From a virus (lineage: Duplodnaviria; Caudoviricetes), in IMG/VR virus record IMGVR_UViG_3300034128_000015, positions 1 to 58,048 of that record: DNA of 58,048 bases; one strand, written 5' to 3'. Position 1 is the first letter of the stretch; each line of letters begins with the position of its first letter. Position numbers and translations under genes: made by a program. This document shows, in pieces, positions 6,165 through 50,040 of this stretch. Under the pieces are notes generated by a model. The model saw only the letters and a program-made list of their open reading frames with translations, made no database searches and had not been told where the DNA came from.

Positions 6165-7406
6165 CTAAAACATTTTACTTATACCATTCCAAATGGTTTG
6201 AATTTCTTTAGGAGACTCGTCATCCATCCACTTCGCATAGACCTCGACAAGCATAGTGAAGTCCTTGTGCCCCATTTGTTTAGCAATGAACGCAAGGTTG
6301 CCACGAGCAGTTAGGCACCAGCATGCATAGGTGTGACGGGTTTGATATGGTCGGCGTGGACGTATGCCTGACCGTTTCTGAATTGCTGTCCACTTTGTAT
6401 TCCACGCTGTGGGGACGTACCAAGGATTAATGATTTTTTTGCGCGCTTGGGTGGTGGGAGAAAGTAGTGGAGTAACTTTATCCTTCCGGCTCTCATGCCT
6501 GTTCTGGAACACCTCAATAGATTGCTTGGAGTGTTCGACAACTAGCGACATCAGAACCCGGCAAGCTTCTATGGCTGGCGGCATTAGTAATACAGTTCTC
6601 GGCTTCCCCGTTTTAGGAACCTTGAAAGTTCCGTTGGCGGTTATTGCCCGAGTGATGTTGATTTGCCCAGCGACCAGGTCAATGTCCTCGACGGCCAGAG
6701 CGCATAGCTCACCAGGTCGGAGTCCGGTATACACCGCCAGCGTGATGGCTGCCGAGTCCTGAGGATGAAGACACCCTTTATTGATTAGTAACTGGAATTC
6801 ATCGCGAGTCAAAGGATCTGGATCCTGACCTTGCATGACGAACCTATTGCAGGCTTCTGACAGCCCTTTGCGGCAGTATCCGTTGGTCTCGCACCAGCCC
6901 AGGAAGCCAGCGTACGTCGCCAGGTAATGGTTGACTGTGGACGGCGCTCGATCTGCGATCAGCAATGTCCGTAGCAACTGGATGTCCTCGGGTAACAAAA
7001 CGCCGGCTAGACGATCGATACCGACAATGCCAGTGCAGATGTCCAAGGCGTACCTGTATTTCTCCTCAGTCATGGGCGTAATGTCGACAGCCTTGAGCGG
7101 CTTATACCGCTCCAGTAGCGCCCCAAGCTTTTCGTCCTTAGCGCTGCTGTAGTTGGTCGCGTGCTTCGAGTTAGGAAAGTGCCGGCCGTAGTCAAAGCGA
7201 CCAGTTTTGATCTCGTGCAGAATCGCCGCCCTTAACAGGGCAGCATGTTTGATATTGGCTTTGGTGATCGGAAGGCCAAGGGATTCGCGGCAACGTATAC
7301 GCCGCCACATGAACACGACGCGCAAGTTGCCGCCGTGGATCTCAATCCCTTTGTGCTTTGCCAGTTCGGTTTCTAGGCCGCTTCCTGAGGTGCGCTCTCG
7401 GCCCAC
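6165..7406 (-). CDS. Tyrosine integrase with N-terminal arm-binding domain
   Basis: TGLRPGEL, YQTRHTYA, QMGH, VYAKW catalytic motifs. Confidence 0.95.
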   Translation of the reverse strand: MGRERTSGSGLETELAKHKGIEIHGGNLRVVFMWRRIRCRESLGLPITKANIKHAALLRAAILHEIKTGRFDYGRHFPNSKHATNYSSAKDEKLGALLERYKPLKAVDITPMTEEKYRYALDICTGIVGIDRLAGVLLPEDIQLLRTLLIADRAPSTVNHYLATYAGFLGWCETNGYCRKGLSEACNRFVMQGQDPDPLTRDEFQLLINKGCLHPQDSAAITLAVYTGLRPGELCALAVEDIDLVAGQINITRAITANGTFKVPKTGKPRTVLLMPPAIEACRVLMSLVVEHSKQSIEVFQNRHESRKDKVTPLLSPTTQARKKIINPWYVPTAWNTKWTAIQKRSGIRPRRPYQTRHTYACWCLTARGNLAFIAKQMGHKDFTMLVEVYAKWMDDESPKEIQTIWNGISKMF

Positions 7407-9446: not shown

Positions 9447-9664
9447 GCGACCTCCTTCACGAGATCGGCGAGCAGCAGGGCGTTTTCGGTGGCCTTATGT
9501 GCCTGGCGTAGGACTTCGTAACCGATCAGTGCTTTCAACTGCCGGTCGAGTTCCTTGTTGTAGCGGGTTAGGGCGCGCAGTTCCTTGGTGGCCTGGGCGT
9601 GCTGCTGTTGCAGTGTGCCGGCGGCTTGAGGTGTCAAGCGAAGCATGGGAATGACGCGGCTCAT
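9443..9664 (-). CDS. Phage hypothetical protein
   Basis: ATGA-coupled within the early-left operon. Confidence 0.7.
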   Translation of the reverse strand: MSRVIPMLRLTPQAAGTLQQQHAQATKELRALTRYNKELDRQLKALIGYEVLRQAHKATENALLLADLVKEVA

Positions 9665-10242
9665 ACGTCACCGCCGACTGCTTTTTGGTTTCGGGTATGA
9701 AGTTCCGCTTCGGTTCGGAAAAATTGCACTGCTTTGCGGGCTTCTTCAGTGCTCATTGCTTCGGTTGGCTCGCGCTCTATCACCCATCGGCCTTGGGGCT
9801 CAGTGATTGAGCTGTTCGCTGGGGCCGGTTCCAGCTTTGGTGTTACTGGACCTAGTAAAGCTGCCATAGCAAGAGCTTGGTCGCGGAGGGCAAGTGAGTC
9901 GCGCTCGAGCTTTTTGCCGGTACGGAATGCGCTGAATGTTTCGGCCGCAATTCGCAGCTTTTCGGCGATCTCCAATAGAGTCTGGCGGGATGGTTCCCCA
10001 AGTTTCGAAGCGGCTAGTGCCCGCTCGTAATGGGAATACAACTTCATATACTGGGCGTGGGCCTGATCAAGCAGTCGCTTCAGATCCTCAATCGCCCCAG
10101 AGTTATCTGATTGCTGAATGGCCTTACCTTCGTCGATACCTTCGATGCGGCCATCAATCAGGCCTCCTCGATAGCCGACCCAATATAGGATCGCGGCTGC
10201 GAAAATGATGCTTATCAAGGCGCAGATTTGAATTGCAGTCAT
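9661..10242 (-). CDS. Phage protein with N-terminal TM helix
   Basis: Hydrophobic N-terminus, AGGAG RBS, translational coupling. Confidence 0.7.
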   Translation of the reverse strand: MTAIQICALISIIFAAAILYWVGYRGGLIDGRIEGIDEGKAIQQSDNSGAIEDLKRLLDQAHAQYMKLYSHYERALAASKLGEPSRQTLLEIAEKLRIAAETFSAFRTGKKLERDSLALRDQALAMAALLGPVTPKLEPAPANSSITEPQGRWVIEREPTEAMSTEEARKAVQFFRTEAELHTRNQKAVGGDV

Positions 10243-10293
10243 GTGGTGTGCTCCTGGTGGTGTGTTGGCTGGTGGTGGCAGCCAATTGGTGTG

Positions 10294-10491
10294 TTATTCG
10301 TCGTCTGGGTCTGGTGGATCTGCCAGGCCACACATCAGCTTGGCCTGATATGGCATGTAGCCCTCCTCGCGCAGGGCGTCGTAGCGGTAGTAGTCGGCAG
10401 CGAAGTAGTTGCACTCATCGCACAGCCGGCTGGGCGTTTCTCCGGCTGACAGAGGTGTGTGGCAGTGCCTACATTTGTTGAGCAATGACAT
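10294..10491 (-). CDS. Small Cys-containing phage protein
   Basis: CxxC..CxxC; GAGG RBS. Confidence 0.55.
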   Translation of the reverse strand: MSLLNKCRHCHTPLSAGETPSRLCDECNYFAADYYRYDALREEGYMPYQAKLMCGLADPPDPDDE

Positions 10492-10492
10492 G

Positions 10493-10813
10493 TCACACCT
10501 CCTCGCTGGCGGCTTCTGGTCGCGGCATCTCTTCGTCCGCCTTGTAAGCGCGGATGTCGATCAGTGCTGCGACGTGTTTTATGTGGGCGTACCGCAATGC
10601 CTTGACGCTGTGATCCAGGGTGGTCACTGGCAGCTGAATACGGCCGCTGTTGATCGCCTCGGTGAAGGTCTTTTCGTTGAGGTTCTTGAAGTAATGCACG
10701 CGCAGCTTTTCCAGGGGGATAAGCACGTCGCCGAAGAGTTGGTGCAGCATCTCGATGGTGGCGCTATCCGGTGCGGGTTGCAGTCGTAGTGGTGTTTGAG
10801 TGATGTTGCTCAT
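10493..10813 (-). CDS. Pyocin activator PrtN-family protein
   Basis: LFGDVLIPLE..RVHYF...I.SG.IQLPV...HIKHVAALID. Confidence 0.75.
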   Translation of the reverse strand: MSNITQTPLRLQPAPDSATIEMLHQLFGDVLIPLEKLRVHYFKNLNEKTFTEAINSGRIQLPVTTLDHSVKALRYAHIKHVAALIDIRAYKADEEMPRPEAASEEV

Positions 10814-10982
10814 GGGCAGCGGCCTCCTTGCGTTTGAGTCGTGAAGGGTGGTTCCAAGCATTCAGGCAATGGCGTTTGGTCAGCTCCCGCAGATGCTCCG
10901 GCACTTCGAGGAGCGCAGCGTTGCGCTCCTCGCGTGTACGCATGGCGACGATCTGGCGGGCGTACTCTCTAGGCCACGTCAC
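10764..10982 (-). CDS. Phage hypothetical protein (GTG start)
   Basis: WPREYARQI..RNAAL.EVPEH ORF within the operon. Confidence 0.55.
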   Translation of the reverse strand: MTWPREYARQIVAMRTREERNAALLEVPEHLRELTKRHCLNAWNHPSRLKRKEAAAHEQHHSNTTTTATRTG

Positions 10983-11253
10983 GGTTGTCTGCCGGGATGG
11001 CTGGCAGTTCGAGACCCAATTGCTCGGCCAGCCAGGGCATACCGGCTTGCCGGACCTTGGTCGACTGGCTGTACTGCATGCCGGCGGTCTCGTGGTACCA
11101 GTTGCCGTTTTTGATCCGCAGGTACTCACGATCACGGACAGGGAAGGCCGGTAGGTTGCGGTCGTTGAGCAGGCCCTTCTCACGCATGAGCGCGATCAGT
11201 TTGGGACGAGTGAGGCCAAAGTACTTGGCGGTTTTTTCCAGGCTACGTTCCAT
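10969..11253 (-). CDS. Antirepressor-like (KilAC/ANT-type) protein
   Basis: AKYFGL...L...MREKG....TKV...G..WL pattern. Confidence 0.65.
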   Translation of the reverse strand: MERSLEKTAKYFGLTRPKLIALMREKGLLNDRNLPAFPVRDREYLRIKNGNWYHETAGMQYSQSTKVRQAGMPWLAEQLGLELPAIPADNRDVA

Positions 11254-11262
11254 CTCGGCCTC

Positions 11263-11844
11263 CTAGGCTGCATGCGCGGCGGGTGTCGCCACGGCAGCCA
11301 GATGGGTGATGGATTCGGCGACCATGGAGTAGATCTCCACGTCACTGCCGTACACCGTGAAGCACTTGGTACGAGGCTTCCTGACGCCTATGCTCATGAT
11401 GGTAGTGATGCCTGCGCGGGTTTTGTTACGGTGGATTGCCAGGTTGATCGGTTGTTCAAAGCCCATATCGAGGCTGAGGGCGCCGCCGGTTTGCACCAGG
11501 TCGAATACCTGCTGCCGGTGTTCAGTCTCGAACACGCCGTAGCGGCGGTCTGCATGCGGCAAAGGCGATGGATCGGCAGAGGTGGTTGGCCCGTTGACGA
11601 TCTCTTCAATGAAGTCTGCAAGCTTGAGGTGCATCTTCTTGCTGTTGGTCAGGGTCAGCGTGTGGCGTTCGCTGTCCAGCTCAACAGTGAAGTGCGTGTC
11701 GACTTTGCGGCGTTCGACTTTCAGGCGGAAGGCCAGGGCTTCACGCTGCGTCTCGGCGCGCAGGAGGTGGTTGAAGGTTTCGGTCAAGTTGACCTGAGCC
11801 TTGAGCAGGGTCAGGGTACGATTGTCGAGTTTGTACTTGCTCAT
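11263..11844 (-). CDS. Phage hypothetical protein
   Basis: 193-aa ORF coupled within the operon. Confidence 0.7.
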   Translation of the reverse strand: MSKYKLDNRTLTLLKAQVNLTETFNHLLRAETQREALAFRLKVERRKVDTHFTVELDSERHTLTLTNSKKMHLKLADFIEEIVNGPTTSADPSPLPHADRRYGVFETEHRQQVFDLVQTGGALSLDMGFEQPINLAIHRNKTRAGITTIMSIGVRKPRTKCFTVYGSDVEIYSMVAESITHLAAVATPAAHAA

Positions 11845-12017
11845 GCTGCTTGCCCTCCGCCGTTTGGATCGAAGGGGGCGGGTGCGGTGCGCTGTTTCAG
11901 CTTGGGTTTGGAAGCGATGAAGGCGCAGCCGCTGTCTTGCGCCAGACGGCGGATTTCGAAGATGCGGGAGGGGTTAGCAGCGGCCGGGTGGACGTGCAAT
12001 GTGGCTGTGGTGTGCAT
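11841..12017 (-). CDS. First gene of the early-left operon, 58 aa (MHTTATLHVHPAAA...)
   Basis: GAGG RBS; stop overlaps next ATG; below the ORF-track cutoff. Confidence 0.65.
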   Translation of the reverse strand: MHTTATLHVHPAAANPSRIFEIRRLAQDSGCAFIASKPKLKQRTAPAPFDPNGGGQAA

Positions 12018-12049
12018 GGTGTTGCCTCGCTCTGTGGTGGAAGAGTTAG

Positions 12050-12125
12050 GCGAATATCACATATTGTTTTTATTGAATCAACACGAATTGTTATTTTTGT
12101 TTGGGTTTTTTGACGTTTCGTTTTG
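12050..12125 (-). promoter_or_regulatory. PL/OL region
   Basis: AT-rich; AC-N5-GT boxes CACATATTGTT, CACGAATTGTT, GACGTTTCGTT resemble those between cI and cro. Confidence 0.55.
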
Positions 12126-12195
12126 AGTTGCGCAAAAATATACTAGCTGTATCTTTTGTTTCTACTTGAATTCGTTGAGTTTTTCAGGAGGGAAA

Positions 12196-12558
12196 ATGTT
12201 TGAACTTGACCCGGACGAAGCAATTGCCGAGCGATATTTCAGATTCGCGAATGATGTGCCTGGACTGTTCGCGGTAGGGCTTTCCGCAACCTCGCTCCAA
12301 TTTCCGCACCCACAGCCGTTTGCGTGGTTTTTTCTATTTGTAGTGGTGTTGTGTGTGTTCGGAGGAGGTAAGCAATACCGAAATATTGCTGCCAAATACA
12401 TTAAGCGCTATCCCGGAGTGATCGGAGGGATGGTCCTGGTGTGGAGAGCCAAGATTTGCATCATTGGCATGTTGCTGCTTGCAGCAATAGCTCTGGGAGA
12501 TCTCACTGAGGCAGGGATTTATGCGTTCTTCAATCTCAACTCGGTAGCATCTAGCTGA
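12196..12558 (+). CDS. Small membrane protein (moron in the immunity region)
   Basis: 3-4 hydrophobic segments, AGGAGG RBS, convergent with cI. Confidence 0.7.
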   Translation: MFELDPDEAIAERYFRFANDVPGLFAVGLSATSLQFPHPQPFAWFFLFVVVLCVFGGGKQYRNIAAKYIKRYPGVIGGMVLVWRAKICIIGMLLLAAIALGDLTEAGIYAFFNLNSVASS

Positions 12559-12567
12559 GGGCTTGGG

Positions 12568-13233
12568 TCAAAGTGCCCCGCCGTGCCATACGATGCGACC
12601 GACGATTTTCAGATGGCCGATTTCATTATCGCTAGCAGCTTCATCTGGGTACTGACGCTTGTCTTCGTTATCGCTACGTATGATCCAGCCGCCAGTCATG
12701 CTCTGCGCTAGGCGCTTGATGATCAGCTCTCCATCAGGTTTGAGCATGGCGTAAATGCGTCGGTCTCTCGGCTCTTTTTGTGCTTCATCCAGCAGGACAA
12801 CATCGCCGTCACAGATGGTGGGTTCCATGCTCTGGCCTTTAGCGTAAATCACATGCAGGCTTCTTTCCCTCAAGGCCATACGGGCGAGCCAGTCTCGCCT
12901 GAAAACCAGTCCCCCTTTGATTTCTACGTGGTCGTTGAGATGCCCGTTGCCGGCTGAGCCGTGCGCTGTATATTGCGGAATCAGAGCGTACTCATCAATT
13001 TTTGGCGCTGTGCTTCTCGTTTGATCGTCGTCGCCTTCGACAAGGTCCATCAGAGGTTTTTTCAAGGCAAGCGAAAGCATGCGCAGATCCGCAAGGCTTG
13101 GTTCGCGCTTATCTTTTTCATAGTTTGCGATACGCCCTTGGCCGTTTTGCCAATTGCAGGCTGCAGCCAAGTCTTTCTGCGTGAGATTCGCTTCGTTTCT
13201 ATAGCGCGCCAGGCGCTGACCTAAAGTTTCCAT
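12568..13233 (-). CDS. CI-like repressor (XRE HTH + S24 peptidase)
   Basis: HTH N-terminus, SAG cleavage site, GQSMEP, IKRL. Confidence 0.93.
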   Translation of the reverse strand: METLGQRLARYRNEANLTQKDLAAACNWQNGQGRIANYEKDKREPSLADLRMLSLALKKPLMDLVEGDDDQTRSTAPKIDEYALIPQYTAHGSAGNGHLNDHVEIKGGLVFRRDWLARMALRERSLHVIYAKGQSMEPTICDGDVVLLDEAQKEPRDRRIYAMLKPDGELIIKRLAQSMTGGWIIRSDNEDKRQYPDEAASDNEIGHLKIVGRIVWHGGAL

Positions 13234-13239
13234 ATGTGG

Positions 13240-13325
13240 AAAATATCACGATTTGTGTAAGTGATTTACGACTTAACGTGTTGTAAAAATAACAAACCGT
13301 TGTTAGTCTCCGTTCGGGATCACGA
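13240..13325. promoter_or_regulatory. OR / PR-PRM region
   Basis: Divergent cI/cro spacer with CACGATTTGTG and AACAAACCGTT boxes. Confidence 0.6.
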
Positions 13326-13338
13326 AGAGAACCTTCTA

Positions 13339-13563
13339 ATGAATAGGATATCTGCCCTCAGAAACCGTAGTGGAATCAAGCAGACGGCACTTGCTGGGGC
13401 TCTGGGTTGGTCTCAGAGCCGGCTGAGTAATTACGAGTCGGGTACTCGAATTCCTGGCTTGTACGAGTGCCGTGCCATTACGGTAGCGCTCAATAAATTG
13501 GGGACTACATGCACTCTTGATGATGTTTTTCCTCCTGAGCATGATGTTCCAGAAGCAGCATAG
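13339..13563 (+). CDS. Cro-like HTH protein
   Basis: QTALAGALGWSQSRLSNYESG; divergent from cI. Confidence 0.88.
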   Translation: MNRISALRNRSGIKQTALAGALGWSQSRLSNYESGTRIPGLYECRAITVALNKLGTTCTLDDVFPPEHDVPEAA

Positions 13564-13888
13564 AAAAAAGGCGACCCAAGGGCCGCCTAGTTCCTCCCGG
13601 CACACACCACCACAGTGCTGTCGGGTCGCGACGAAGGTAGGAGGGCACACCACATGCAAACCACCTCCCTTTATCGCGCTGCCAAGGCACGGATGCCTTG
13701 GGTTGCTGCCTTCTCCACCACAGATTAGGCAGCTGTTGCGCCAGAGGTGAGCAACGGATTGTTCGCCTCGGCACGGTGCCGGTTTCGATCCCTAAGATCT
13801 GGCCGGCGTTTGGGCCCTTTCAAGCCACGCGGCAAATGTATCACCACTACACGTCGCGGGGCACTGGCAACTTAGTAGGATTAATGCC

Positions 13889-14407
13889 ATGAGCCGAGTA
13901 GCTTTAAGCTGTGTTGATCGAGCGCAAAGGGAAGTCCTGACGCTCGAATTAGCCCTGTACCACGCCGCACGGGACTATCCCGGCGGTGCCGCTGCAATCG
14001 CCGCCACCACCGGCCGCAATGCCACCACGTTGCAGCACAAGTTGTCTCCCACCCATCCCTCGCACGCGGTCAACATTCAAGAGTTCGGCGAGATCCTCGA
14101 ATTGACCAAGGACCGCCGCATCCTCGATGCGGTACATGCATTGGTCGGCGACACAACGTGGCAAGAGCTGGCTGAAACCTATACCAGCGACATGCCTGAG
14201 ACCCTGACCACCGGTATTGCCTCGTACTTCAGGCAGGTGGCTGACCTGGCCGACACCTGGGCCAAGAGCATTGGCGATGGCGTTGTGAGTGATCAGGAAC
14301 TGGCCGAGATTCGCCTGCAGGTATTTCGCGGAATCCAGGGACTGTTGGGGATGCTCAATCGCGCCCAATACGTCAACCAGACAACTCGGGGGGCGGACCG
14401 TGGCTGA
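13889..14407 (+). CDS. CII-family phage regulator
   Basis: YPGGAAAIA...TLQHKLSP...DGVVS..E. Confidence 0.8.
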   Translation: MSRVALSCVDRAQREVLTLELALYHAARDYPGGAAAIAATTGRNATTLQHKLSPTHPSHAVNIQEFGEILELTKDRRILDAVHALVGDTTWQELAETYTSDMPETLTTGIASYFRQVADLADTWAKSIGDGVVSDQELAEIRLQVFRGIQGLLGMLNRAQYVNQTTRGADRG

Positions 14408-14627
14408 CGACATCGACTTTGCAAATGACCTGGTGCAGGAGCGCATGGACCGTGCGCTCGCCGCACGAAACGTGAAAAAAGCCGCCATGCCCGCGCATTC
14501 CTTCATGTTCTGTGAAGAGTGCGACACGCCGATCCCAACAGCGCGCCGCGTGGCGATTCCCGGCTGCACGCATTGCGTGACCTGCCAATCCATCGACGAA
14601 GCCAGGAATGCCCGCCATGCTCGATGA
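14400..14627 (+). CDS. TraR/DksA C4 zinc-finger protein
   Basis: ADDID.A, CEECD.PIP.ARR.A.PGC..CV.CQ. Confidence 0.88.
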   Translation: MADDIDFANDLVQERMDRALAARNVKKAAMPAHSFMFCEECDTPIPTARRVAIPGCTHCVTCQSIDEARNARHAR

Positions 14628-16833
14628 GGTATTGAATCAGTTCGCGGACTACGGCCTTGAACCCGCTCAGCCCCTGGCCTTCGGCAAACTCACCCGCTGC
14701 AAAACCACCCAGGACAAGGGCAAGGAAAAAAACGGCTGGTACGTCATCCACGAACACCGTACCGAAAAAAACGAAACGCTGATCTTCGGCAGCTTCGGTG
14801 ACTGGCGCTCCGGTGACACCCAAAAGATCAAGGTCAAGGCCGGGCGCATGAGTCCCGAAGAGCGTGAGGTCATGCGCGCTCGGCAGGAAGAAGCCAAGCG
14901 TAAGGCTGCCGAGGTTGCGGCCAACGCCTCGCGCCGAGCGGCCAGCCGTGCTGCCGGCCTGTTCAAGCGCATGCCGGAGAAGGGCAAGAGCGCCTATCTG
15001 GATCGAAAGCAGATTGTCGGCTTCAAGGTTCGCTATGCGCCACGTACTGGCGCATTTTTGGTGCCTATGTGCAATGTGCGCGACCAGATCGTCGGCCTGC
15101 AGGTGATTTTCCCCTCGAAGCAAGAGGACACCGGCCGTGACAAGGCGTACTGGCCCTACGGCATGTCGAAGGAAGGCGCCTTCCACCTGATCGGCCCGCA
15201 TCCTGAGCCCGGCGAACCGGTGCTGGTGTGTGAGGGGTATGCCACGGGCGCCAGCCTGCACATGGCGACTTCGCTCACCGTCGCCATCGCCTTCGACGCG
15301 GGCAACCTGCTGCCGGTCTCCAAGGCCATGCGCGAGCGTTTCCCCGGTTGCCCGCTGATCATCTGCCGCGATGATGACTGGAAGACCACGCGCCCCAACG
15401 GTGACCCTTGGAACCCAGGCGAAGAGAAGGCCAACAATGCAGCGCTGGTTGTCGGCGGTCAGGTGGTCGCCCCGGTGTTCTCCGGCGAGCGCGAGATCAA
15501 GTGGACCGACTTCAACGACCTGCACGTCGCCGAGGGATTGGAGGCCGTCCGCCGCCAGGTGCTGGCGGTGGTCAAGCCTCCAGCAGCTGGTGGTTGGAAG
15601 GACCAACTGGCACGCACCGAAAACGGCTCCCTGATCGCGCACATGCAAAACGTCGAACTAATCCTGGGCAATGACGAACGCTGGGCCGGCGTCATCGGTT
15701 ACAGCGTGTTCAGCTCCAAGATCGTCAAGCTGCGGTCCGCGCCCTTTGGCGGCGGTGCCGGCGATTGGGCCGACATCGATGACATGCGGGTGATGAAGTG
15801 GCTTGCGCAGCAGTACAACTTGCGGGTCAAGGCGTCCCATGTGATCGAGGCGGTCAGCGTAGTTGCCCACGACCATTCCTTTCACCCGGTGCGCGAGTAC
15901 CTGGAGAAGCTGGAATGGGACCGCGTGCCCCGGCTGGAAACCTGGCTGACCGATGTGCTGGGCGTCCAGCCCACGGAGTACTCGGCCAAGGTCGGTAAGC
16001 GCTGGCCAATCTCGGCAGTTGCCCGGGTGATGCGCCCGGGCTGCAAGGCTGACTCAGTAATGATCCTCGAGGGCGGGCAGGGTGAAGGCAAGTCCACCGC
16101 CATGGGCGTTCTCGGCGGCGAGTGGTTTATGGACACACCCTTTGCCCTCGGCGACAAGGACAGCTTCCAGGCGATTCGCGGCAAGTGGATTGTCGAGCTG
16201 GGGGAGTTGGACAGCTTCAACAAGGCTGAAAGCACCAAGGCCAAGCAGTTTTTCTCCGCGTCCACCGACACCTACCGCGAGAGCTACGGCCGCAGGACGA
16301 ACGACGTGCCACGCCAGTGTGTGTTCGTGGGTACCACGAACCAAGAGGAATACCTCAAGGACGCCACCGGCAACCGTCGTTATTGGCCAGTGTTCTGTAA
16401 CAAGGTCGATCTGGAGCAACTGCGCGAGATCCGCGACCAGCTTTGGGCTGAGGCGCTGTTCTGCTTTGAGGCGGGCGATATCTGGTGGGTGACCAAGGAT
16501 GAAACCCGGATGTTCACCGAGGCCCAGGACGAACGCTTTGTGGTCGATGAATGGGAAGGGCCGATCCTGACCTGGATGGAAGAGTCGCAGATCGGCGAAA
16601 CCGCCACTGGCAACGAGATCCTGACCCAGGCGCTGAAGCTGGACTTCGGCCATTGGGGCAAGCCAGAGCAGATGCGGGTCGGGGCGATCATGCACCGGCT
16701 GGGTTGGCGCAAGCGGCGAATGCCGGCATTGCCAAAAAGCGGGGTACGGCCTTGGGCCTATGAGAAGCCTGCGGGCTGGGGCCGTGCGTCTGTGTTGCAG
16801 CAGTCGGTGATCGAGGAGCCTTGCTTTGATTAA
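14617..16833 (+). CDS. Primase (TOPRIM)-helicase (VirE/VapE) replication protein
   Basis: CEGYATG, DDD, TDFND; GGQGEGKST; TGNRRYWP. Confidence 0.9.
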   Translation: MLDEVLNQFADYGLEPAQPLAFGKLTRCKTTQDKGKEKNGWYVIHEHRTEKNETLIFGSFGDWRSGDTQKIKVKAGRMSPEEREVMRARQEEAKRKAAEVAANASRRAASRAAGLFKRMPEKGKSAYLDRKQIVGFKVRYAPRTGAFLVPMCNVRDQIVGLQVIFPSKQEDTGRDKAYWPYGMSKEGAFHLIGPHPEPGEPVLVCEGYATGASLHMATSLTVAIAFDAGNLLPVSKAMRERFPGCPLIICRDDDWKTTRPNGDPWNPGEEKANNAALVVGGQVVAPVFSGEREIKWTDFNDLHVAEGLEAVRRQVLAVVKPPAAGGWKDQLARTENGSLIAHMQNVELILGNDERWAGVIGYSVFSSKIVKLRSAPFGGGAGDWADIDDMRVMKWLAQQYNLRVKASHVIEAVSVVAHDHSFHPVREYLEKLEWDRVPRLETWLTDVLGVQPTEYSAKVGKRWPISAVARVMRPGCKADSVMILEGGQGEGKSTAMGVLGGEWFMDTPFALGDKDSFQAIRGKWIVELGELDSFNKAESTKAKQFFSASTDTYRESYGRRTNDVPRQCVFVGTTNQEEYLKDATGNRRYWPVFCNKVDLEQLREIRDQLWAEALFCFEAGDIWWVTKDETRMFTEAQDERFVVDEWEGPILTWMEESQIGETATGNEILTQALKLDFGHWGKPEQMRVGAIMHRLGWRKRRMPALPKSGVRPWAYEKPAGWGRASVLQQSVIEEPCFD

Positions 16834-17191
16834 GCGAATCGACGAGATGCTCAAGCTATGGGCGCAGGATCTACATTCGCCTGTACCAGAAAACGTTGGC
16901 GGGCCGAGTGGCGGCAACATGATCGCCATGTTGATGGAATGCAAAGGGGAGCTGATACGCGGCACGCGTGGTAGTCGAGTGCTGCTGGATGAATCAGTGG
17001 ATATTGAGCTAATCGTCAAGAAGCACCTGCCGCCCCGCCTTGCACTGGTCGTGTGGGAGCACTACTGCAACCACGAAAGCTTCCTTTCACAGAAGCTATT
17101 GCACTGTGCATGCAGCTCGCGGACGTACTATATGCGGCTGCATGACGCCCATGTGTTCATCCAGGGGATGCTGATGGGGAAGGCTGCATGA
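16826..17191 (+). CDS. Putative late regulator (Q-like position, C-terminal HTH)
   Basis: Lies between replication and lysis genes; SRTYYMRLHDAH. Confidence 0.55.
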   Translation: MIKRIDEMLKLWAQDLHSPVPENVGGPSGGNMIAMLMECKGELIRGTRGSRVLLDESVDIELIVKKHLPPRLALVVWEHYCNHESFLSQKLLHCACSSRTYYMRLHDAHVFIQGMLMGKAA

Positions 17192-17216
17192 CCCTCTGCG
17201 TCACTCCGCGTGCCTC

Positions 17217-17493
17217 TGTCCTACCGTCCTGCCTTGTCCGACTCGCATTTAGCGCAGTTGGACAGGCGCAGGCCGCGCCGTTGTTGGTCTGTCCTACCGT
17301 CCAACCTTTACCCATCCCACGCACACATGAGCATAGCGGGCACGTAGTCGCGCCCATGGCGCGCACGCGTGCTTTTAGCTTTCTCTCTATACACAAGAGA
17401 AAAGTAAAATAGGTAGGACAGTAGGGCAGAGCCCCGCATTCAGGCGCCTGTAGCTGTCCTACTACGATCTAGAATAGTGGGACAGGTAAGACA
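17217..17493. repeat. TGTCCTAC iteron-like direct and inverted repeats (candidate ori)
   Basis: TGTCCTACCGTCC at 17217 and 17290, TGTCCTAC at 17455, inverted GTAGGACA/GTAGGGCA/GTGGGACA/GTAAGACA at 17413-17493. Confidence 0.7.
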
Positions 17494-17673
17494 AGGCACC
17501 AGAAGCGATGGCCGATTGAATGCGTTGTCCCTGCGTTGCACCTGCGTCATACCTGTATTGCACCCGTATTGCGCCATGGCATTAAAACCCGCTTGCTGCC
17601 AGTAAAATCCACCTGTAAAAAGTACCCATCTTCGATAGGTGCGACCGCAAGCAGCGGGACACACCACCACACT

Positions 17674-17699
17674 GAACCCGGCCATTGCGCCGGGTTTTT
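17674..17699 (+). terminator. Terminator in the late leader before the holin
   Basis: AACCCGGC/GCCGGGTT + TTT. Confidence 0.7.
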
Positions 17700-17718
17700 G
17701 CGTTTATGGGGTAGGGCG

Positions 17719-43942: not shown

Positions 43943-45499
43943 CTAAGCGAAGCTCTGCCGCAGAAGCTTTCTGAATTGCTCGAATGCAGCCATAAAGGAA
44001 ACTGGGTGCTGGCCTTTACGGAACCTATGATTCGACATCAATAGCTGTTCCATCTCTGCCTGGGTTCTCTCTAGGGCATCACCAACACCGATCGGCCCTA
44101 TAACCTCGGAGCCGATTCTTTCGCCGATATGGGGTGAGATGCTAAACCGTCCTCCCCCCGGCTCTTTACTATCCTCTTCAATTTGGTTGAAGAGATTTCC
44201 CATAGAACCCGCTGGCTTATCTTTTAACCATTCAGTAAGTGTTATCAAGTCCTTAAGTGTCATGTAAATAACATCTTTAAGTTTCACGGGAAGGCAGCCG
44301 TATTTTTGTACAAGGGCATCTTCAAAACCATCTTGTATATAGTGGGAAACGTATTCGCCGCCATAGATGTGAAAATCTTCCAGGGTAACAACTATTATTC
44401 TTATTTTTTTGTTTTTAAAACTATCCACTGCGCTTAATTTGAAAGCTGTTTCTTGACCCTGTTCAACACCCTTAATGAAACTATCTTTTAGAAGCTCAGA
44501 GAGCAAACTAGGATCGTATGCGCATCTCATCAATACCGACGGAGTTATCGCCTTTGATTCAAATACGAAAACATCATCTTTATCTACTGCGACATAGTCT
44601 GCGATTTTTCCAATTTTAATCGGGATTATTTTATTTAGATCGGGCATGGAGTATACTTTCAGAGATGTTATTTTTAAGCGTTCTCCTACGTAGCACTCCA
44701 CATCTCCACCAAATTTTCCATAAAACTGCGGACAGCTTTTAAGAACGTCCATTGCAATGCTTCTTAATCCCGAAACACACAACCCGGCATTGAAAATAAC
44801 CAGTCCATCACTTTCAATAATAATTGGTTTGTTTTTGAAGGGTGTTTCTTGATAGAGTTCTGCAGAATTACAATCCTTGACGGAATAAGTGTTGAGATAT
44901 TGGGGCAGCATTTGAAAAGGAATTGCGACAAGTTTCAGGAAGTTAGCTAATGTTTTGTTGCTTATAGCGGGGGATAAATGGGAGTAAAATGCCGTCATAC
45001 TCCACCTAACGACGCTGTTAGGATCTTCCTTGCCCGTTATCGTCATTAGGTAACATGCAATCTTGTAATAGTCGTTTAGGGTGATTCCGACTTTTTTATA
45101 GAAAAGATCATTGTTGAAGTTGAGCGAGCGTTCAAGTAGGGTGCGCTGTAGAATTACTTGGCGCCAGCTATCAGTTATTGGGACTTGGTACCACAGCTGC
45201 TGGATTATCATCGCTCGCATCATTAGCATAAAAATTTCGGGGGAGGTATCTAGTAGTCGATTAGATAGCTTGTAAACCCTATTTACCAATCTTAAAAAAT
45301 CATTTGTATTAATTTCAAGGGAGCCGCTTTTTTCCAAAAGCGAAAGCTTTAAGAAAAACATCACTACCCATGGCATGTTTTTTAAGGAGCGGCCTTGATC
45401 GAGATAATTCAGTGCGCAATTAAAAACTGAATGGTGCGAGTAGCGGGATAAGTCTGTCTTAATATTTTCGAGCTCTCTGGTATATGACGCTACAATCAA
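43943..45499 (-). CDS. Hypothetical 518-aa protein with C-terminal PD-(D/E)xK-like nuclease (candidate anti-phage)
   Basis: E.YV...IADYV...VFESKA; AT-rich; TTG start with GGAGG RBS. Confidence 0.7.
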   Translation of the reverse strand: MIVASYTRELENIKTDLSRYSHHSVFNCALNYLDQGRSLKNMPWVVMFFLKLSLLEKSGSLEINTNDFLRLVNRVYKLSNRLLDTSPEIFMLMMRAMIIQQLWYQVPITDSWRQVILQRTLLERSLNFNNDLFYKKVGITLNDYYKIACYLMTITGKEDPNSVVRWSMTAFYSHLSPAISNKTLANFLKLVAIPFQMLPQYLNTYSVKDCNSAELYQETPFKNKPIIIESDGLVIFNAGLCVSGLRSIAMDVLKSCPQFYGKFGGDVECYVGERLKITSLKVYSMPDLNKIIPIKIGKIADYVAVDKDDVFVFESKAITPSVLMRCAYDPSLLSELLKDSFIKGVEQGQETAFKLSAVDSFKNKKIRIIVVTLEDFHIYGGEYVSHYIQDGFEDALVQKYGCLPVKLKDVIYMTLKDLITLTEWLKDKPAGSMGNLFNQIEEDSKEPGGGRFSISPHIGERIGSEVIGPIGVGDALERTQAEMEQLLMSNHRFRKGQHPVSFMAAFEQFRKLLRQSFA

Positions 45500-45615
45500 A
45501 ACTCACCTCCTGATTTTTACCGAATGTAGCCACCAATTGAGCCAAATCTGATCCACCATACTCCTAGGATCAAAAGTGTCGCTAAGAAATGACCGACCCA
45601 ACACCACGGGAAACT

Positions 45616-45670
45616 ACCCACGGCGTCAGCTTCATTACCGCCGCCTCCAACGCAAGCTGGTTCTCATAGA
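45616..45670 (-). pseudogene. Fragment duplicating part of the small gene at 47401-47622
   Basis: 48/55 nt identical to 47528-47582 (YENQLALEAAVMKLT). Confidence 0.75.
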
Positions 45671-45837
45671 GAGGCTGCTTTCGGCTAAGTTTGAAAAACC
45701 TTTAAGACCACATTATTCCTAACACCCATTCATGCTGCTACTGTGTCTAAAAGAATATGTGCTATGGAACAAGTAGGAATTAGGGCAGACCACGATTAAA
45801 AAATCGCCCAACTGTGGGGCAGCCCAAATCATTCCCT

Positions 45838-46281
45838 TTAGTGTTCAAATTTTTCGATCAGATCCTCTAGTCCGCCTAGCCAAGCAGAGACATCTTTTGC
45901 CTCACTAGGGAGCGACTTATAGTTATGTGCAGCCTCATTTCTAACAGTGTAATCCTTGTCCAGTTTTGCGCGAACCTTCTGATTGGCGTCGAATATTAGA
46001 TCAAGGCGCTTGCGGACTGGGTATTCTTTTAGTGCATCTCTTAAATGTTGCCAGGCAAATCTATCTATCGTTTTTGCCCTCGCATTTTGCTCTACGATTT
46101 CCTTTGATTCCTGCCGAACTAGATATTCGAATTGTCCCCAGCCTAAGAGGTAAAATGCAATGTCAAGCGTCTCTCGAATCTTATTTAAATTTGACGAGTC
46201 AGATGCTCTTTTCCGAATTTCCTCATCAAGCAAACGGGCTAGCTGGTCATATGCGCGCTTGGTCTCACCCACACGGCTCAT
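45838..46281 (-). CDS. Small HEPN-like protein
   Basis: RNEAAH (Rx4H) in a helical protein; upstream FE motif. Confidence 0.68.
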   Translation of the reverse strand: MSRVGETKRAYDQLARLLDEEIRKRASDSSNLNKIRETLDIAFYLLGWGQFEYLVRQESKEIVEQNARAKTIDRFAWQHLRDALKEYPVRKRLDLIFDANQKVRAKLDKDYTVRNEAAHNYKSLPSEAKDVSAWLGGLEDLIEKFEH

Positions 46282-47195
46282 GGCTTCACCATATAGCTGA
46301 TGATTTTTTCTTTTGTAAGCATTTCAGCATTTTTTCGGTTGTCCGGGTCAACTTCACACCAGTTGAAAATTGATTTTTCATCTTTTATTGCTACTAATAT
46401 TCGCGTTTTGACTTGAGTTATAACATCTATTCGTCCCGATGCACCAATCACCCAAAGCCCCCTCGGAACGAAGCTTGCGATAACCTGCTCGCCATGCATA
46501 ACGTCGAGAATCGGAAGCTCTCTATCGCTTACAGCATATTTTTGCATCAATTCTTCAGACATTGTTACAGTCCGTGTTTTTTCGAAGTGTAAAGAACTTT
46601 GGTCGGACAGCCATTCTTCAATTCTTATATAAAACTCCCTTACTCGCGACTCCCAGTCTATGACTCTGTCAACAACCTGGCTTCGCCTAAAAATACTCTC
46701 ACTGGTTTTCTCCCAAACATCTATCGGAGACATTTTTACAAAATCAAGAAGCCCTGCCTCTAAACGTTGAATAACCAACTTCAGGTTCTCAATATTAAAG
46801 TGCCAAACCTGCATTTCTTTTCCATGAAACCTGGCTGCCTTTATTCGTTCTGACGCATAAGAAATGTCTCGATCTTTAGGGTCTCTTTCTCTCACTTTAA
46901 TTTCAATTAGTTTTTCGTTGCCATCTATATCCGTGAGTACTAAGTCTCCTTCGCAGTCGCTGCTATCTTTTTTTTGCAATCTCGTCATGCCACTTACTTG
47001 CAGCGTTTGAACTATACGCTCTTCCGCTACATCACTCTCGTCAGCAACGCGAGGCAGAACAAGAGAATCGGTTTCAGGGTCAAACTTAGACTTTTCAGGG
47101 AGTCCGATGGATGAACCAAAAACAACATATCTATTTCCAATATTGACGAGGACTTGTGTCTGGTTTTTCTGTTCGGGTTTCATATTATTCTGCAC
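46278..47195 (-). CDS. Hypothetical protein with PD-(D/E)xK-like domain
   Basis: E...GDLVL...LIEIK; ATGA overlap with the HEPN gene. Confidence 0.65.
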   Translation of the reverse strand: MQNNMKPEQKNQTQVLVNIGNRYVVFGSSIGLPEKSKFDPETDSLVLPRVADESDVAEERIVQTLQVSGMTRLQKKDSSDCEGDLVLTDIDGNEKLIEIKVRERDPKDRDISYASERIKAARFHGKEMQVWHFNIENLKLVIQRLEAGLLDFVKMSPIDVWEKTSESIFRRSQVVDRVIDWESRVREFYIRIEEWLSDQSSLHFEKTRTVTMSEELMQKYAVSDRELPILDVMHGEQVIASFVPRGLWVIGASGRIDVITQVKTRILVAIKDEKSIFNWCEVDPDNRKNAEMLTKEKIISYMVKP

Positions 47196-47400
47196 TTATT
47201 AAGTTTTTTTGATCACTAATCTTCACGTTTCACACTTTCGACAAGCCATGCGAGGGCGATACTGAAATCGCTATCTAGCTAGAATACGTTAAACGCAATC
47301 TTATTATCTATAGGACGAATGCCCGCGCCTGGCCGGTTGCTGCCGGTTAGCACCTGTGCGCTGCCCGCGTTAGGATTACCGGATGCAAACCTGAAAAGGC

Positions 47401-47622
47401 CTAGGCTTGACCGGAACTCGAAGCCTTGAGCTTGGCCAAGCCCTGTTTGATGTGGCCAGCGTTCTCTCCAATAGCTTCCAGTGCTCCACGGATATTATCG
47501 CCGACCTCTGACGAAGCCCTCTGTTCCACCCACAACGTCAGCTCCATTACCGCCGCCTCCAAGGCGAGCTGATTGTCATAGATCCTTTCCAGAACATCGG
47601 GTAGTGAGTAATCACCTGACAT
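47401..47622 (-). CDS. Small helical hypothetical protein (73 aa)
   Basis: AAGGAG RBS; host-like GC. Confidence 0.65.
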   Translation of the reverse strand: MSGDYSLPDVLERIYDNQLALEAAVMELTLWVEQRASSEVGDNIRGALEAIGENAGHIKQGLAKLKASSSGQA

Positions 47623-47680
47623 GGGGTCGACTCCTTTCGAGAGAAAGATCAAGCATAGCAGCGGCAGTGGAGAAGATGTT

Positions 47681-47810
47681 TAGGGCAAAATTAGGGCAGA
47701 TTCAGGGCCGCCATAGACCGTATGGCGCCATGAGCAAAGGACGAAAACATCGTATTTTCTGGCCTTAAGCGGTATACAGAGACGCAAGGAGGGGTTCGAA
47801 TCCCTATCTC
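47681..47810 (+). other. Relic attachment-end module (arm-like repeat + tRNA T-arm-like fragment)
   Basis: TAGGGCAAAATTAGGGCA; GGGGTTCGAATCCC at 47791-47804. Confidence 0.5.
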
Positions 47811-47892
47811 AATATTGAAATCGAAAGCAGCTATTGCCACTGCGGGAAATTTATGTTGTTTCGATTTCGGCCCAAATTTTAAACTGGGAGTT

Positions 47893-49674
47893 TTATTTTG
47901 GATATTGAAATCTCAGTAATAATCTGTCGATGTTGTCTTTAGAAAATACGAGCTGCTTCTCTGATAGTTTTTTTCGGTAAGACATATAATTAAGCTCTAC
48001 CATTTTGAACCCTTGTGCTACGGAAATAATCGTCGCGTCCATTGAGGCGAGCGCCATTAACCATCGCATGATAGAGTCTAGATAGTCATGAGTATTCTCT
48101 ATCAAGACCTCCGCATAAGAAGGTGTGGAGCCATCATGTACGATAGTGTTTCTTGCGCGGTATATTCGGCGCAGTTGCCAAGCAACTCTTTTTTCGTGGT
48201 TGTCTAGAATTTTTAAAATTTCAGTAGGACTAGTCAGCAGGCTGACAAGATACTTATAACGATCCTCGAGCAAATGATAGTCGCCAAAACTTGCCTCTAA
48301 CTCGTCACGTAAATATTGATATTCTGGCAGGGCAAGCAAGTGCGCGGTTTTCGAAGAGATGCCTTGTGTGTCGATTTTTTTGTACAGTTTGCGAACCAGA
48401 TTTTTATTCCATTGTAATAAATCTTTGAAGAATCTAGTTAGTAATTTGTTTATGTACTCAAGATTAAGGAATGGGGTAATAGATGATGTTAAATGGTCAA
48501 TTTGAGCTAAATCTTTATCTGTTTTGCTTGGTACTAGGGACTCTAGTGCGATCCATAAATTGATCATCTGGTTTTCTATGGAGTCACTACCTAGTGCAAG
48601 AGAATGCAGTTCGGCGCTTCGGTGGAATTTGTTAAAGGATTCTTTGTCCAATGCAAAAGCTTTGAGGAAACTCGATAATTTCTTAGATGCAACACTTGGA
48701 ACGGCATCAGCGCATTTGTGCATTGGATTTGTATGTTTAGAAATTTTTGTACAAGTTTCCGTGGCGGCATTTTTTACCAAGCATTCGTTTATAGGTTTTG
48801 GTGATTCTTTATGATGGTATAGTCCAATTAGAGTTTGAATCGCCTCAACTGAACTGTCGGCTTTGATTTTGACAAAGTTTGGTTCTTTTCCTTTTATTTT
48901 CTCCAGGCAAATAAAAACTTCATTGTTTCCTAAGTGTATGTCGTGTCTTCTAATGTCTTCCTCGGTTATAGGGCAGTTCTCCAAGTTTTCAAGTACATTT
49001 ATTCCTAGAAGTCCTGCCGCTTCGGAAAATGCCACAAGATAAGAAGGTGCTTTGTAAATCACATAGTGCTCAGTTACTTTTGTAGAAAAGTATCTAAAGT
49101 AATCCTCTATAGCTCCGTTTCCCGATATTCTGTCTGTCGAGTAATGGAAAAAATCTTTGGATGTTTGGCATATGTACGTGGCGGTATATCCGCTATTGAG
49201 TAGCGTGGTGATGTATGATCGCGTTAGCTTGCGCAACCGCGAACTTTGCTCTCTTCCCAGCAGTTCCTCCTTAATCAGTTCTTCATTTTTTGCCTTGTAA
49301 GCAGGCAGTGGGATCTGACGCAGTAATAACTTAACAACTGTAGCAATGCTGGCATCTGAGGATTTTGGATTCGTAAGGGTGTTTATTACGCCAACTTCAT
49401 CAACAGACATTAGGCTGCGAGCAACCTCGTCAGATTGCAGGTTTTCGCACAGCTCATTTAGTATGTGAAGCAAATTAGGCTTCATCACAATTCCAGCGTC
49501 AATTGCCACAATTGTATCGGCAGCCTCCTTAACTAGTAAGGCTGTGTTCATGGCTGATGGCTTATAGCTATCAAGAGTGTAGTCAAACATTAATTCATCT
49601 ATTAGCTGAGCAACAAATATCAACCCCTTGGACTCTGATTTGTTATCCCATTTGTTCAGGCTTCGGAACCGCAT
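47893..49674 (-). CDS. Large HEPN-domain protein, ApeA-like C-terminus (593 aa)
   Basis: LWIALESL and RIYRARNTIVHDG (Rx4H); AT-rich; GAGG RBS at 49674 (ORF open to 49815). Confidence 0.78.
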   Translation of the reverse strand: MRFRSLNKWDNKSESKGLIFVAQLIDELMFDYTLDSYKPSAMNTALLVKEAADTIVAIDAGIVMKPNLLHILNELCENLQSDEVARSLMSVDEVGVINTLTNPKSSDASIATVVKLLLRQIPLPAYKAKNEELIKEELLGREQSSRLRKLTRSYITTLLNSGYTATYICQTSKDFFHYSTDRISGNGAIEDYFRYFSTKVTEHYVIYKAPSYLVAFSEAAGLLGINVLENLENCPITEEDIRRHDIHLGNNEVFICLEKIKGKEPNFVKIKADSSVEAIQTLIGLYHHKESPKPINECLVKNAATETCTKISKHTNPMHKCADAVPSVASKKLSSFLKAFALDKESFNKFHRSAELHSLALGSDSIENQMINLWIALESLVPSKTDKDLAQIDHLTSSITPFLNLEYINKLLTRFFKDLLQWNKNLVRKLYKKIDTQGISSKTAHLLALPEYQYLRDELEASFGDYHLLEDRYKYLVSLLTSPTEILKILDNHEKRVAWQLRRIYRARNTIVHDGSTPSYAEVLIENTHDYLDSIMRWLMALASMDATIISVAQGFKMVELNYMSYRKKLSEKQLVFSKDNIDRLLLRFQYPK

Positions 49675-50040
49675 CTGCACACCCTCAAAAAAACGTCGGT
49701 TTTGCATGATGCCATAACGACATAATGAGGGGCAGTAGAATTGGTAAATAGTCTTCTGAAGAGCGTGCATTAAGTACGATGGCGCTCGCATGCACAGGTC
49801 GAATGTAGTGAGCAAAAAGCTCTTTCTAGCTTTTCGTCTGATATAGCATTGACTCCTTTCGAAAAAGAAAAAGGCATAGTACCGGTAGTACTCTTTGTGG
49901 GCGGTAAATGCTGCATGCTTAGAAATTGCTACAAAGCATTGTGTTATCGAGGAATTAGCCAGGCTGGCCGGGGGCGACGAGCGACTACGCCCAATCCATC
50001 ATCGGACGGATCGTTTCTCTAGAACCTCGAGCACCGAGCG

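Follow-up and report, generated by a model that had tools for sequence, protein, structure and literature searches.

The window analyzed here, the 58,048 nucleotides (nt) of the IMG/VR virus record IMGVR_UViG_3300034128_000015, is Pseudomonas DNA in which a lambda-like prophage occupies about 5 to 41 kb. In this prophage, the 325-nt spacer between the cro-like gene and cII (13564–13888) holds a conserved, covarying structure of nine hairpins, several of which display the sequence CACCAC in their loops, and segments of these loops recur at the starts of p58 and p193b, two genes of the divergent early-left operon. The reading that we favor, with slightly better than even confidence, is that the CACCAC motifs are the sense halves of an RNA–RNA pairing network centered on the cro–cII spacer, in which an antisense RNA with GUGGUG loops would pair with the start regions of its own phage's genes.

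The six motif sites listed in the original prediction, which described a CACCAC loop on varying stems in phage transcript leaders, are all found in the sequence, five of them exactly where they had been placed. The remaining site, ACACCACCACA, is on the plus strand as claimed, but at 17661–17671, one base away from the position given, within a 13-mer spanning 17659–17671. CACCAC occurs 66 times in the window, compared with 32.0 ± 5.2 in 100 shuffled sequences, none of which reaches 66. Most of this window-wide excess reflects codon usage, because the matches within genes correspond to sense ACC–ACC or antisense GTG–GTG frames; in the late genes (18–41 kb) the two strands carry 14 copies each. 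Between 9600 and 17750, 15 of 16 copies lie on the transcribed strand, the exception being at 12343, and 11 matches (9 sites) fall in non-coding leaders. In the leaders, as originally noted, the motif is confined to the sense strand, and the leaders of relatives hold no GTGGTG.

Relatives were collected through the cII protein, using the best 80 of 108 matches in species-representative genomes, all Pseudomonas, and the best 80 of 491 viral-contig matches, for a total of 160 loci; a second viral scan with a cII alignment, aimed at distant relatives, returned the same close loci. In most of the 146 distinct cro–cII spacers, CACCAC is present near positions −284/−281, −241, −173 and −47, and GTGGTG does not occur. 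The motif is found upstream of p193b in 77 of 79 distinct sequences (159 CACCAC versus 0 GTGGTG), upstream of p58 in 117 of 134 (120 versus 0) and upstream of the holin gene in 89 of 113 (131 versus 0). Over the whole left arm of these relatives, sense copies outnumber antisense copies by about 20:1, although some are Thr–Thr codons. The pattern CACACCACCACA has 17 matches in five complete genomes, compared with 7 for a reversed control (13 of the 17 were inspected as sequence and 4 were placed by coordinates). Six of them lie in prophage leaders; the remaining 11 are in coding-looking sequence with no hairpin or terminator context, 4 of these in one conserved gene. The CACCAC loops are real and are conserved in this Pseudomonas prophage family, in the same four leaders, across up to 160 related loci.

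The structure of the spacer was examined in an alignment of 72 spacers with mutual identity below 94%. RNAalifold predicts nine hairpins (H1–H9), with compensatory changes in 28 of 79 base pairs. When the inner CACCAC stems are added, 96.8% of the alignment cells pair and 30 of 88 pairs change on both sides, compared with 15.6 ± 2.0 in shuffled alignments; none of 500 shuffles reaches the observed number. In slid controls, 33.5–40.8% of cells pair. For the spacer hairpins, this covariation across the 72 sequences confirms the earlier proposal of variable stems around a conserved loop. The element does not correspond to an Rfam family on either strand: a cmscan search of both strands of 13450–13950, with E up to 10, gave six chance-level rows, and C4 was not among them.

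CACCAC loops of 7–11 nt are present in H2, H3, H5 and H8, and each of the hairpins H2–H9 is described here on the plus strand. H1 (13570–13587) pairs in 99% of cells. H2 (13596–13625) presents the loop CACCACCACAG at 13605–13615, and its loop-closing pair covaries, being GC in 39, AU in 24 and GU in 7 of the 72 sequences. H3 (13627–13678) has outer stems that covary and contains an inner hairpin, GCA-CACCACA-UGC, at 13645–13657, and H5 (13705–13733) contains the inner hairpin UCU-CCACCAC-AGA. The intervening H4 (13682–13701) has a CGGA loop in the context CACGGAUG, and six of its eight pairs change on both sides; H6 (13736–13776) also has a CGGA loop, with five pairs changing on both sides. 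H7 (13778–13807) is an RNAalifold prediction with a covarying inner stem and a weak U run behind it. This hairpin, at which the terminator scan made no call, may be a counterpart of tR1. H8 (13825–13861) forms 13 pairs (95.7% paired in the alignment) around the loop UCACCAC (13841–13847), and its 5′ arm is invariant in the spacer alignment while its 3′ arm varies. In H9 (13865–13889) the Shine-Dalgarno (SD) sequence of cII, AGGA, lies in the loop and the start codon abuts the stem; five pairs are invariant in 72 of 72 spacers.

Elsewhere in the window, the longest exact copies of spacer sequence all have the sense orientation, and they fall at the starts of p193b and p58 and in the late leader. 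The p193b leader (10240–10285, minus strand) contains the hairpin UUGGCUG-CCACCAC-CAGCCAA at 10265–10285, whose stem appears as GGCCG/CGGCC and GGACUG/CAGUCC in the alignment of 79 distinct sequences. The hairpin is followed by a spacer, ACACACCACCA (10255–10265), which is an 11-mer of H2, and by the SD-CACACCAC-AUG region at 10240–10251, which is identical over 12 nt to GCACACCACATG of H3; the 12-mer GCACACCACAUG at the p193b start coincides with the H3 inner hairpin. In the p58 leader, a hairpin at 12026–12049 (minus strand) with the loop UCCACCAC lies just 5′ of, and overlaps, the SD sequence GAGG; it is located at −22 in 108 of 134 distinct sequences. H5 matches this hairpin at 12031–12041 through UCCACCACAGA, identical over 11 nt. 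The first codons of p58 (GCACACCACA, 12006–12015, minus strand), which encode the protein start MHTT, match H3 as an exact 10-mer. The 13-mer ACACACCACCACA of H2 recurs in the late leader at 17659–17671 (plus strand), as a C/A-rich stretch directly before the intrinsic terminator at 17674–17697. This copy lies outside any loop, single-stranded between a small hairpin and the terminator.

The case for a functional connection between these sites is strengthened by changes that occur in step. In all five loci where H3 reads (C/U)AAACCAAAUG (the GCAAACCAAAUG variant), the p193b start carries GAGCAAACCAAAUG, which is absent from all 85 loci that combine the usual H3 with a readable p193b start. The p58 start is likewise changed, to GCAAACCA, in three of these five loci. 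A further nine or so loci have single differences, on either the H3 or the p193b side only. Where H5 has the variant CUUACCACAGAG, the p58 loop is other than CCACCAC in 16 of 16 loci, in seven of them reading UUUACCACAGAG; deviant p58 loops are also present in a few loci whose H5 is the usual one. The association is also seen across the whole set. The longest match between a p193b start and its own spacer averages 11.74 nt, compared with 11.39 nt for permuted pairings, and the corresponding values for the p58 start are 12.07 and 11.52 nt; in neither case does any of 300 permutations reach the observed mean. The identity between p58 and H5 extends to 15–18 nt in 21 of 134 distinct pairs.

The prophage family is syntenic, with p121 and the primase each present in 156 of the 160 loci, p58 in 142, p193a in 139, the holin in 135 and p193b in 89. 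Only 7 loci have the same cI and only 30 the same cro, so that a mosaic immunity module lies between conserved arms. The association of variants across this mosaic region is not explained simply by a shared backbone, and it persists in mosaic backgrounds. Residues diagnostic of the five H3-variant loci are absent from p58, p193a, KilAC, the PrtN-like protein, cII, the DksA-like protein, p121 and the holin. For the five loci with a CAAACCAA loop, one diagnostic residue is found in p193b and five in the primase-helicase, clustered near its C-terminus; this cluster is the sole multi-residue signature common to the five. The lack of a co-varying protein among those tested argues against co-evolution of a protein and its operators.

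What could the CACCAC segments pair with? The sense leaders contain no GTGGTG, and identical sense sequences cannot pair with one another, which leaves the opposite strand of the spacer as the only complement encoded. Two conserved signals lie on that strand. H1, read on the minus strand, is an intrinsic terminator (13563–13588) of eight pairs, six of them G-C, followed by TTTTTT in the terminator scan. Of the 146 distinct relatives, 144 keep the corresponding six-A run ahead of H1; on the plus strand, an A6 run before a hairpin has no obvious role. At the other end, a relaxed consensus scan finds an extended −10-like element, TGnTACATT (13835–13843, minus strand), with a predicted start near 13828. 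Its reverse complement and one flanking base are kept in 144 of 146 distinct sequences, and in the remaining two the nine core bases are intact; variation is confined to the n position. The element lies across part of H8, overlapping both its invariant 5′ arm and its loop. On the basis of the conserved −10-like element and terminator, an antisense RNA of about 265 nt is predicted.

Calculated duplexes between the predicted antisense hairpins and the recurrent sites are stable relative to shuffled targets. Antisense H5 with the p58 leader gives −35.9 kcal/mol (z −5.7), antisense H3 with the p193b start −28.4 kcal/mol (z −3.8), antisense H3 with the p58 start −24.4 kcal/mol (z −2.7) and antisense H2 with the late leader −38.8 kcal/mol (z −3.0). 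Two further calculations were set aside. Duplexfold of the whole RNA against all start regions was uninformative, as long loops dominate, and a sorting of loop–target mismatches by the strand that permits wobble pairing was swamped by fixed flanking differences.

Expression data were taken from contigs, not reads, of four wetland metatranscriptome runs (X1–X4) from four studies; contigs give neither strand nor true level, and DNA may occur in such libraries. In X1 the summed contig depth is 22830 in the bin 13576–13859, compared with 374 and 824 in the neighboring bins, and in X3 it is 2233, compared with 51 and 28. In X2 this bin has a depth of 384, compared with 50 to its left, and a depth of 416 extends onward to about 14805; X4 shows 209 and 216 over 13292–13859, compared with 29 and 56 outside. 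In three of the four runs (X1, X2 and X3) a contig starts at 13618, and contigs end at 13746 (X3) or 13734 (X4). Extra letters precede the start and follow the ends, and we take these to be sequencing-adaptor ends. The pattern suggests a discrete, abundant RNA of 117–129 nt (13618–13746) covering H3, H4 and H5, which, if the contigs are a guide, may be among the most abundant prophage products in natural communities. The orientation of the adaptor letters, compared with two internal adaptor-bearing contig ends (10207 and 15745) in genes of known direction, hints at the minus strand. Taken with the opposing signs described below, the assignment of this RNA to the minus strand is close to a toss-up, tilted slightly toward minus.

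From these observations we infer transcription of the minus strand, pairing with the start regions and repression as the effect. In this model, the spacer (13564–13888) is the conserved nine-hairpin leader of the cII mRNA, and its opposite strand would be transcribed from the extended −10 element (13843–13835, start near 13828) to the terminator at 13588–13563. The resulting antisense RNA of about 265 nt, perhaps processed to a core of about 120 nt, would display GUGGUG loops that are the complements of H2, H3 and H5. It could pair in cis with the cII leader, to which it would be fully complementary, and in trans with the hairpin loop and first codons of p58 and with the hairpin, spacer and SD–AUG region of p193b. 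The outcome would be a block to translation of these early-left genes and a second, RNA-based layer of control over both early arms. Firing of PR would yield sense leader, which could titrate the antisense RNA. We also put forward, tentatively and with more doubt than belief, an extension of this model in which lysogens constantly make an abundant multi-loop antisense RNA whose three GUGGUG loops silence the cII leader and the early-left starts, both in the resident prophage and in incoming relatives with a different repressor. Loop variants (CACACCAC versus CAAACCAA, CCACCAC versus UUACCAC) would then define RNA immunity groups independent of cI/cro type.

Several observations weigh against an antisense regulator and have to be set beside the evidence for it. 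The covariation itself favors the other strand: G-U cells outnumber A-C cells by 489 to 56, and 97.8% of cells are canonical on the plus strand, compared with 89.9% on the minus strand. The preponderance of G-U over A-C indicates that the selected fold is that of the plus strand, the cII leader, and not that of an antisense RNA. The asymmetry is greatest in H6 (98.6% canonical on plus versus 77.9% on minus), followed by H5, and is small in H2–H4. No −35 element was found for the candidate promoter, which is a consensus match only. The ends of the environmental RNA, 13618 and 13734/13746, match neither the predicted start near 13828 nor the terminator near 13565, so that processing has to be assumed, and the sharper end at 13618 together with an opposite end flush with H5 hints at the plus strand. 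Exact repeats of this length are not unusual by chance; by our own arithmetic about 9 matches of 11 nt, 2.3 of 12 nt and 0.6 of 13 nt are expected in 58 kb. The case for the network therefore rests on conservation and concerted change, and the cleanest concerted change involves one variant type in five loci, possibly the product of few events. Finally, the late leader has no excess match to its own spacer, with 228 of 300 permutations reaching the observed value. In relatives its motif, found in 89 of the 113 distinct sequences, stays rich in C and A while the exact words vary. The idea that the system spans the late operon is not borne out, as the late-leader motif matches its own spacer no better than the spacers of other phages. 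Membership of this copy in the network is plausible from the 13-nt match in the window and is not supported by co-variation.

Among the modes of action that had been offered for the motif, translational control and an sRNA–target system agree with the loop repeats at gene starts, the concerted change and the opposite-strand promoter-like element and terminator, whereas nut-like antitermination fares poorly, with no boxA in the four leaders, no co-varying protein among those tested and one repeated site that is linear. Proteins nonetheless deserve consideration. A phage or host protein could bind CACCAC in single-stranded RNA or in loops, either for nut/N-like antitermination or as a translational repressor at its operators, and the copies in three operons would be its sites. 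The positions do recall nutL and nutR, as the copies follow each early promoter and precede the first gene or terminator; covarying stems carry conserved loops, and in N/boxB pairs, too, the sites change in concert. A candidate might be sought in p193a, which is predicted to form two beta-beta-beta-beta-alpha repeats (pLDDT 84) and whose top Foldseek rows are single-stranded nucleic acid binders (MRP1/2, PUR-alpha, ThermoDBP and Whirly), though only at E 3e-3 or weaker; by VIA-align the match is unspecific (Z at most 6.3, common alpha/beta arrangements). Profile searches of p193a and p121 against PDB sequences gave nothing below E 0.5. As originally noted, no lambda N-like gene is recognizable: the searches gave no N-like or other RNA-binding family for p58, p193a, p193b or p121, and p58 matches no Pfam or NCBIfam family, only PHROGs of unknown function, with an N-terminus (MHTTATLHVHP) that is not arginine-rich. 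The best boxA match in the four leaders has 2–4 mismatches in 8 positions of the consensus. The diagnostic residues are limited to the five clustered primase C-terminal columns and the one in p193b. The identity between sites spans 12–18 nt, including stem arms and the AUG, which is more than a loop-binding protein needs, and in one pair of matching sites one member is linear and the other a loop. We consider a protein partner improbable.

A second rival, in keeping with the strand preference of the covariation, is that the sense strand is the functional one. A stable fragment of the cII leader (13618–13734/13746) could use its CACCAC loops to mimic the p58 and p193b starts and thereby decoy a G/U-rich RNA or factor, as the anti-sRNA AgvB mimics GcvB targets. 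The start-region mimicry is exact over 10–12 nt, the RNA ends flush with H5, and its 13618 end is shared with an X2 contig of 8-fold depth that runs through cII to 14805; both ends are as expected of a processed plus-strand RNA. The difficulty is the partner. None of the conserved leaders has GUGGUG on its sense strand (0 GTGGTG), a complement is encoded only by the spacer's own antisense strand, and a host partner is unlikely to change in step with a phage variant found in several host species. The adaptor orientation relative to the two internal controls also points the other way, and we regard the decoy as quite improbable. Least probable of the readings considered is that the motifs are generic C/A-rich elements, such as unstructured translational enhancers, ribosome standby sites or Rho-binding (rut) segments, that lack a specific partner. 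C/A-rich enhancers are known upstream of ribosome-binding sites in enterobacteria, several copies here lie 0–35 nt from SD sequences, the p193b leader is 47% C and 14% G, and the late-leader copy keeps its C/A-richness rather than its exact words. Generic elements would not be expected to keep exact 10–18 nt words that change in concert at distant sites, or to occupy hairpin loops, as do the four copies 47–284 nt upstream of cII, and in the cII leader C is little more frequent than G (31.7% versus 27.7%).

Other explanations were considered and rejected. DNA-level iterons or a primase origin are ruled out by the excess of G-U over A-C cells and the strict sense-strand placement. For a leader peptide or histidine attenuation, an ATG in H3 opens a frame of 24 codons in the window; indels of 1–6 nt just after it shift the frame in relatives, and thus no H3 leader peptide is conserved. 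The late-leader frames through CACCACCAC, inspected by eye, have no start codon or only the holin-frame TTG. The Chi site GCTGGTGG within the p193b hairpin is a coincidence, being absent from the other copies.

The cII leader has a second feature of potential regulatory interest. GGA is found in the hairpin loops of H4 and H6 (CGGA) and, as part of the SD sequence, in that of H9 (AGGA), a layout that fits the consensus of CsrA/RsmA leaders. We take H4 to be a GGA hairpin of the RsmA/E-binding type and the three-GGA-hairpin layout to be that of RsmA/E (CsrA) target leaders. On these sequence features, cII synthesis may be under Gac/Rsm control, and the hairpins point to a possible Gac/Rsm input at this level.

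The genes surrounding these elements are arranged as follows. The leftward operon begins with p58 (58 amino acids (aa); 11841–12017, minus strand) and continues on the same strand with p193a (11263–11844; PHROG 15582, unknown function), a KilAC-like protein (10969–11253), a PrtN/excisionase-like protein (10493–10813), a small zinc-ribbon-like protein of 65 aa (10294–10491) and p193b, a protein with a hydrophobic N-terminus (9661–10242); the integrase is at 6165–7406 (minus). The gene for the zinc-ribbon-like protein is present in only 11 of the 160 loci. Contigs from three of the four metatranscriptome runs link 10284 to 10517 with 36 other letters between, and one contig of a fourth run links 10284 to 10526, which indicates that common environmental relatives lack this gene. 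Between the leftward operon and the cI-type repressor (12568–13233, minus) is a membrane-protein gene (12196–12558, plus) of low GC content at third codon positions (GC3), which has a homologue in none of the 160 related loci and is probably a moron. To the right, all on the plus strand, are the cro-like gene (13339–13563), cII (13889–14407; CP76 family), a DksA/TraR-like gene (14400–14627), the primase-helicase (14608–16833), p121 (16826–17191), the late leader (17192–17718), with its intrinsic terminator (17674–17697) at the end, and the holin gene (17719 onward).

The 121-aa product of p121 matches the PA0613-family NCBIfam equivalog with E 3e-57, and its C-terminal half resembles sigma-factor region 4 in Foldseek searches (probability up to 0.95, although E is about 1). 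In the pyocin cluster of P. aeruginosa, PA0613 is located before the holin. P121 is probably the late-gene regulator. Several words of the GTCCTAC, GGACAG and TTGCAC types occur in the late control region at 17200–17560, upstream of the leader, and may be sites for the late regulator or for cII. The C-termini of p58, p193a and p121 end in Ala-Ala (QAA, HAA and KAA), kept in their alignments and reminiscent of C-terminal protease tags. Outside these regions, rsmZ (1407–1542) is the only Rfam match at gathering score in a cmscan of the whole window, and it marks the DNA as that of Pseudomonas. Just beyond the prophage, at 43943–49815, three long minus-strand open reading frames have GC3 of 0.38–0.43, compared with 0.7–0.8 around them; they are probably foreign DNA and possibly a defence island.

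If the RNA–RNA pairing model is correct, a large family of temperate Pseudomonas phages has an RNA layer in its lysis–lysogeny switch that gene annotation has missed. The family takes in each of the 80 best genome loci, which come from dozens of named species, together with 80 of the 491 viral contigs. Base pairing would link two divergent early operons, could explain cross-immunity between phages with different repressors and would provide natural, programmable multi-loop regulator–target pairs for Pseudomonas. The portions of the literature covered (full text and one 2025 review of phage small RNAs) hold no description of the element. In the sections of it covered, the review names one Pseudomonas phage RNA, which is unrelated (PMC12197685).

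The element can be compared with several known systems. Like lambdoid nut sites, the conserved-loop hairpins lie just downstream of both early promoters, on the right between cro and cII. Unlike nut sites and N, they come with no boxA and no recognizable N-like protein, in four to five copies on the right arm, and some copies overlap start codons. A different precedent is STnc6030 of the Salmonella prophage BTP1, an antisense RNA that, in the passages covered of the study describing it, is high in lysogens, acts through base pairing against phages of its own kind and is countered by escape mutations in the paired segment (PMC7067206). STnc6030 is longer than 700 nt and antisense to late structural genes, and differs from the spacer RNA in having no multi-loop arrangement or matched sites in trans. 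The overlap of the predicted RNA with the cII transcript is reminiscent of lambda OOP, which the review's account, as far as covered, presents as a small RNA that is made against the cII transcript from a promoter and to a terminator of its own and that influences the choice between lysis and lysogeny (PMC12197685). Here the strand opposite the cII transcript carries a conserved terminator, and the candidate promoter is an extended −10 consensus match kept in each of the 146 distinct relatives. The overlap of OOP is with cII at its 3′ end, and its action is limited to cis; the overlap here is with the 5′ leader, and the matched sites lie in another operon.

A close parallel is the c4 RNA of phages P1 and P7. 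Its relatives are the CI RNA of P4 and the CA RNA of N15, and a c4-type regulator is cut by RNase P from the leader of the transcript that also holds its targets. In the part of the review devoted to it, c4 is a structured phage RNA whose loops pair with short complements around the ribosome-binding sites of the phage's own genes, with loop and target differing in step between related phages to give heteroimmunity (PMC12197685). The spacer matches no Rfam C4 model on either strand with E up to 10. A c4-style regulator from the same strand as its targets is excluded, because the sense leaders hold no GTGGTG; the regulator proposed here would instead be the antisense of the cII leader, with its own promoter-like element and terminator and with targets in the divergent early-left operon. 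It would have three loops in about 265 nt, compared with about 77 nt for c4. The likeness to c4 is in the logic of the pairing: if the minus strand is read, the spacer loops complement the p193b start over 12 nt, the p58 hairpin over 11 nt and the p58 start over 10 nt, and loops and targets co-vary.

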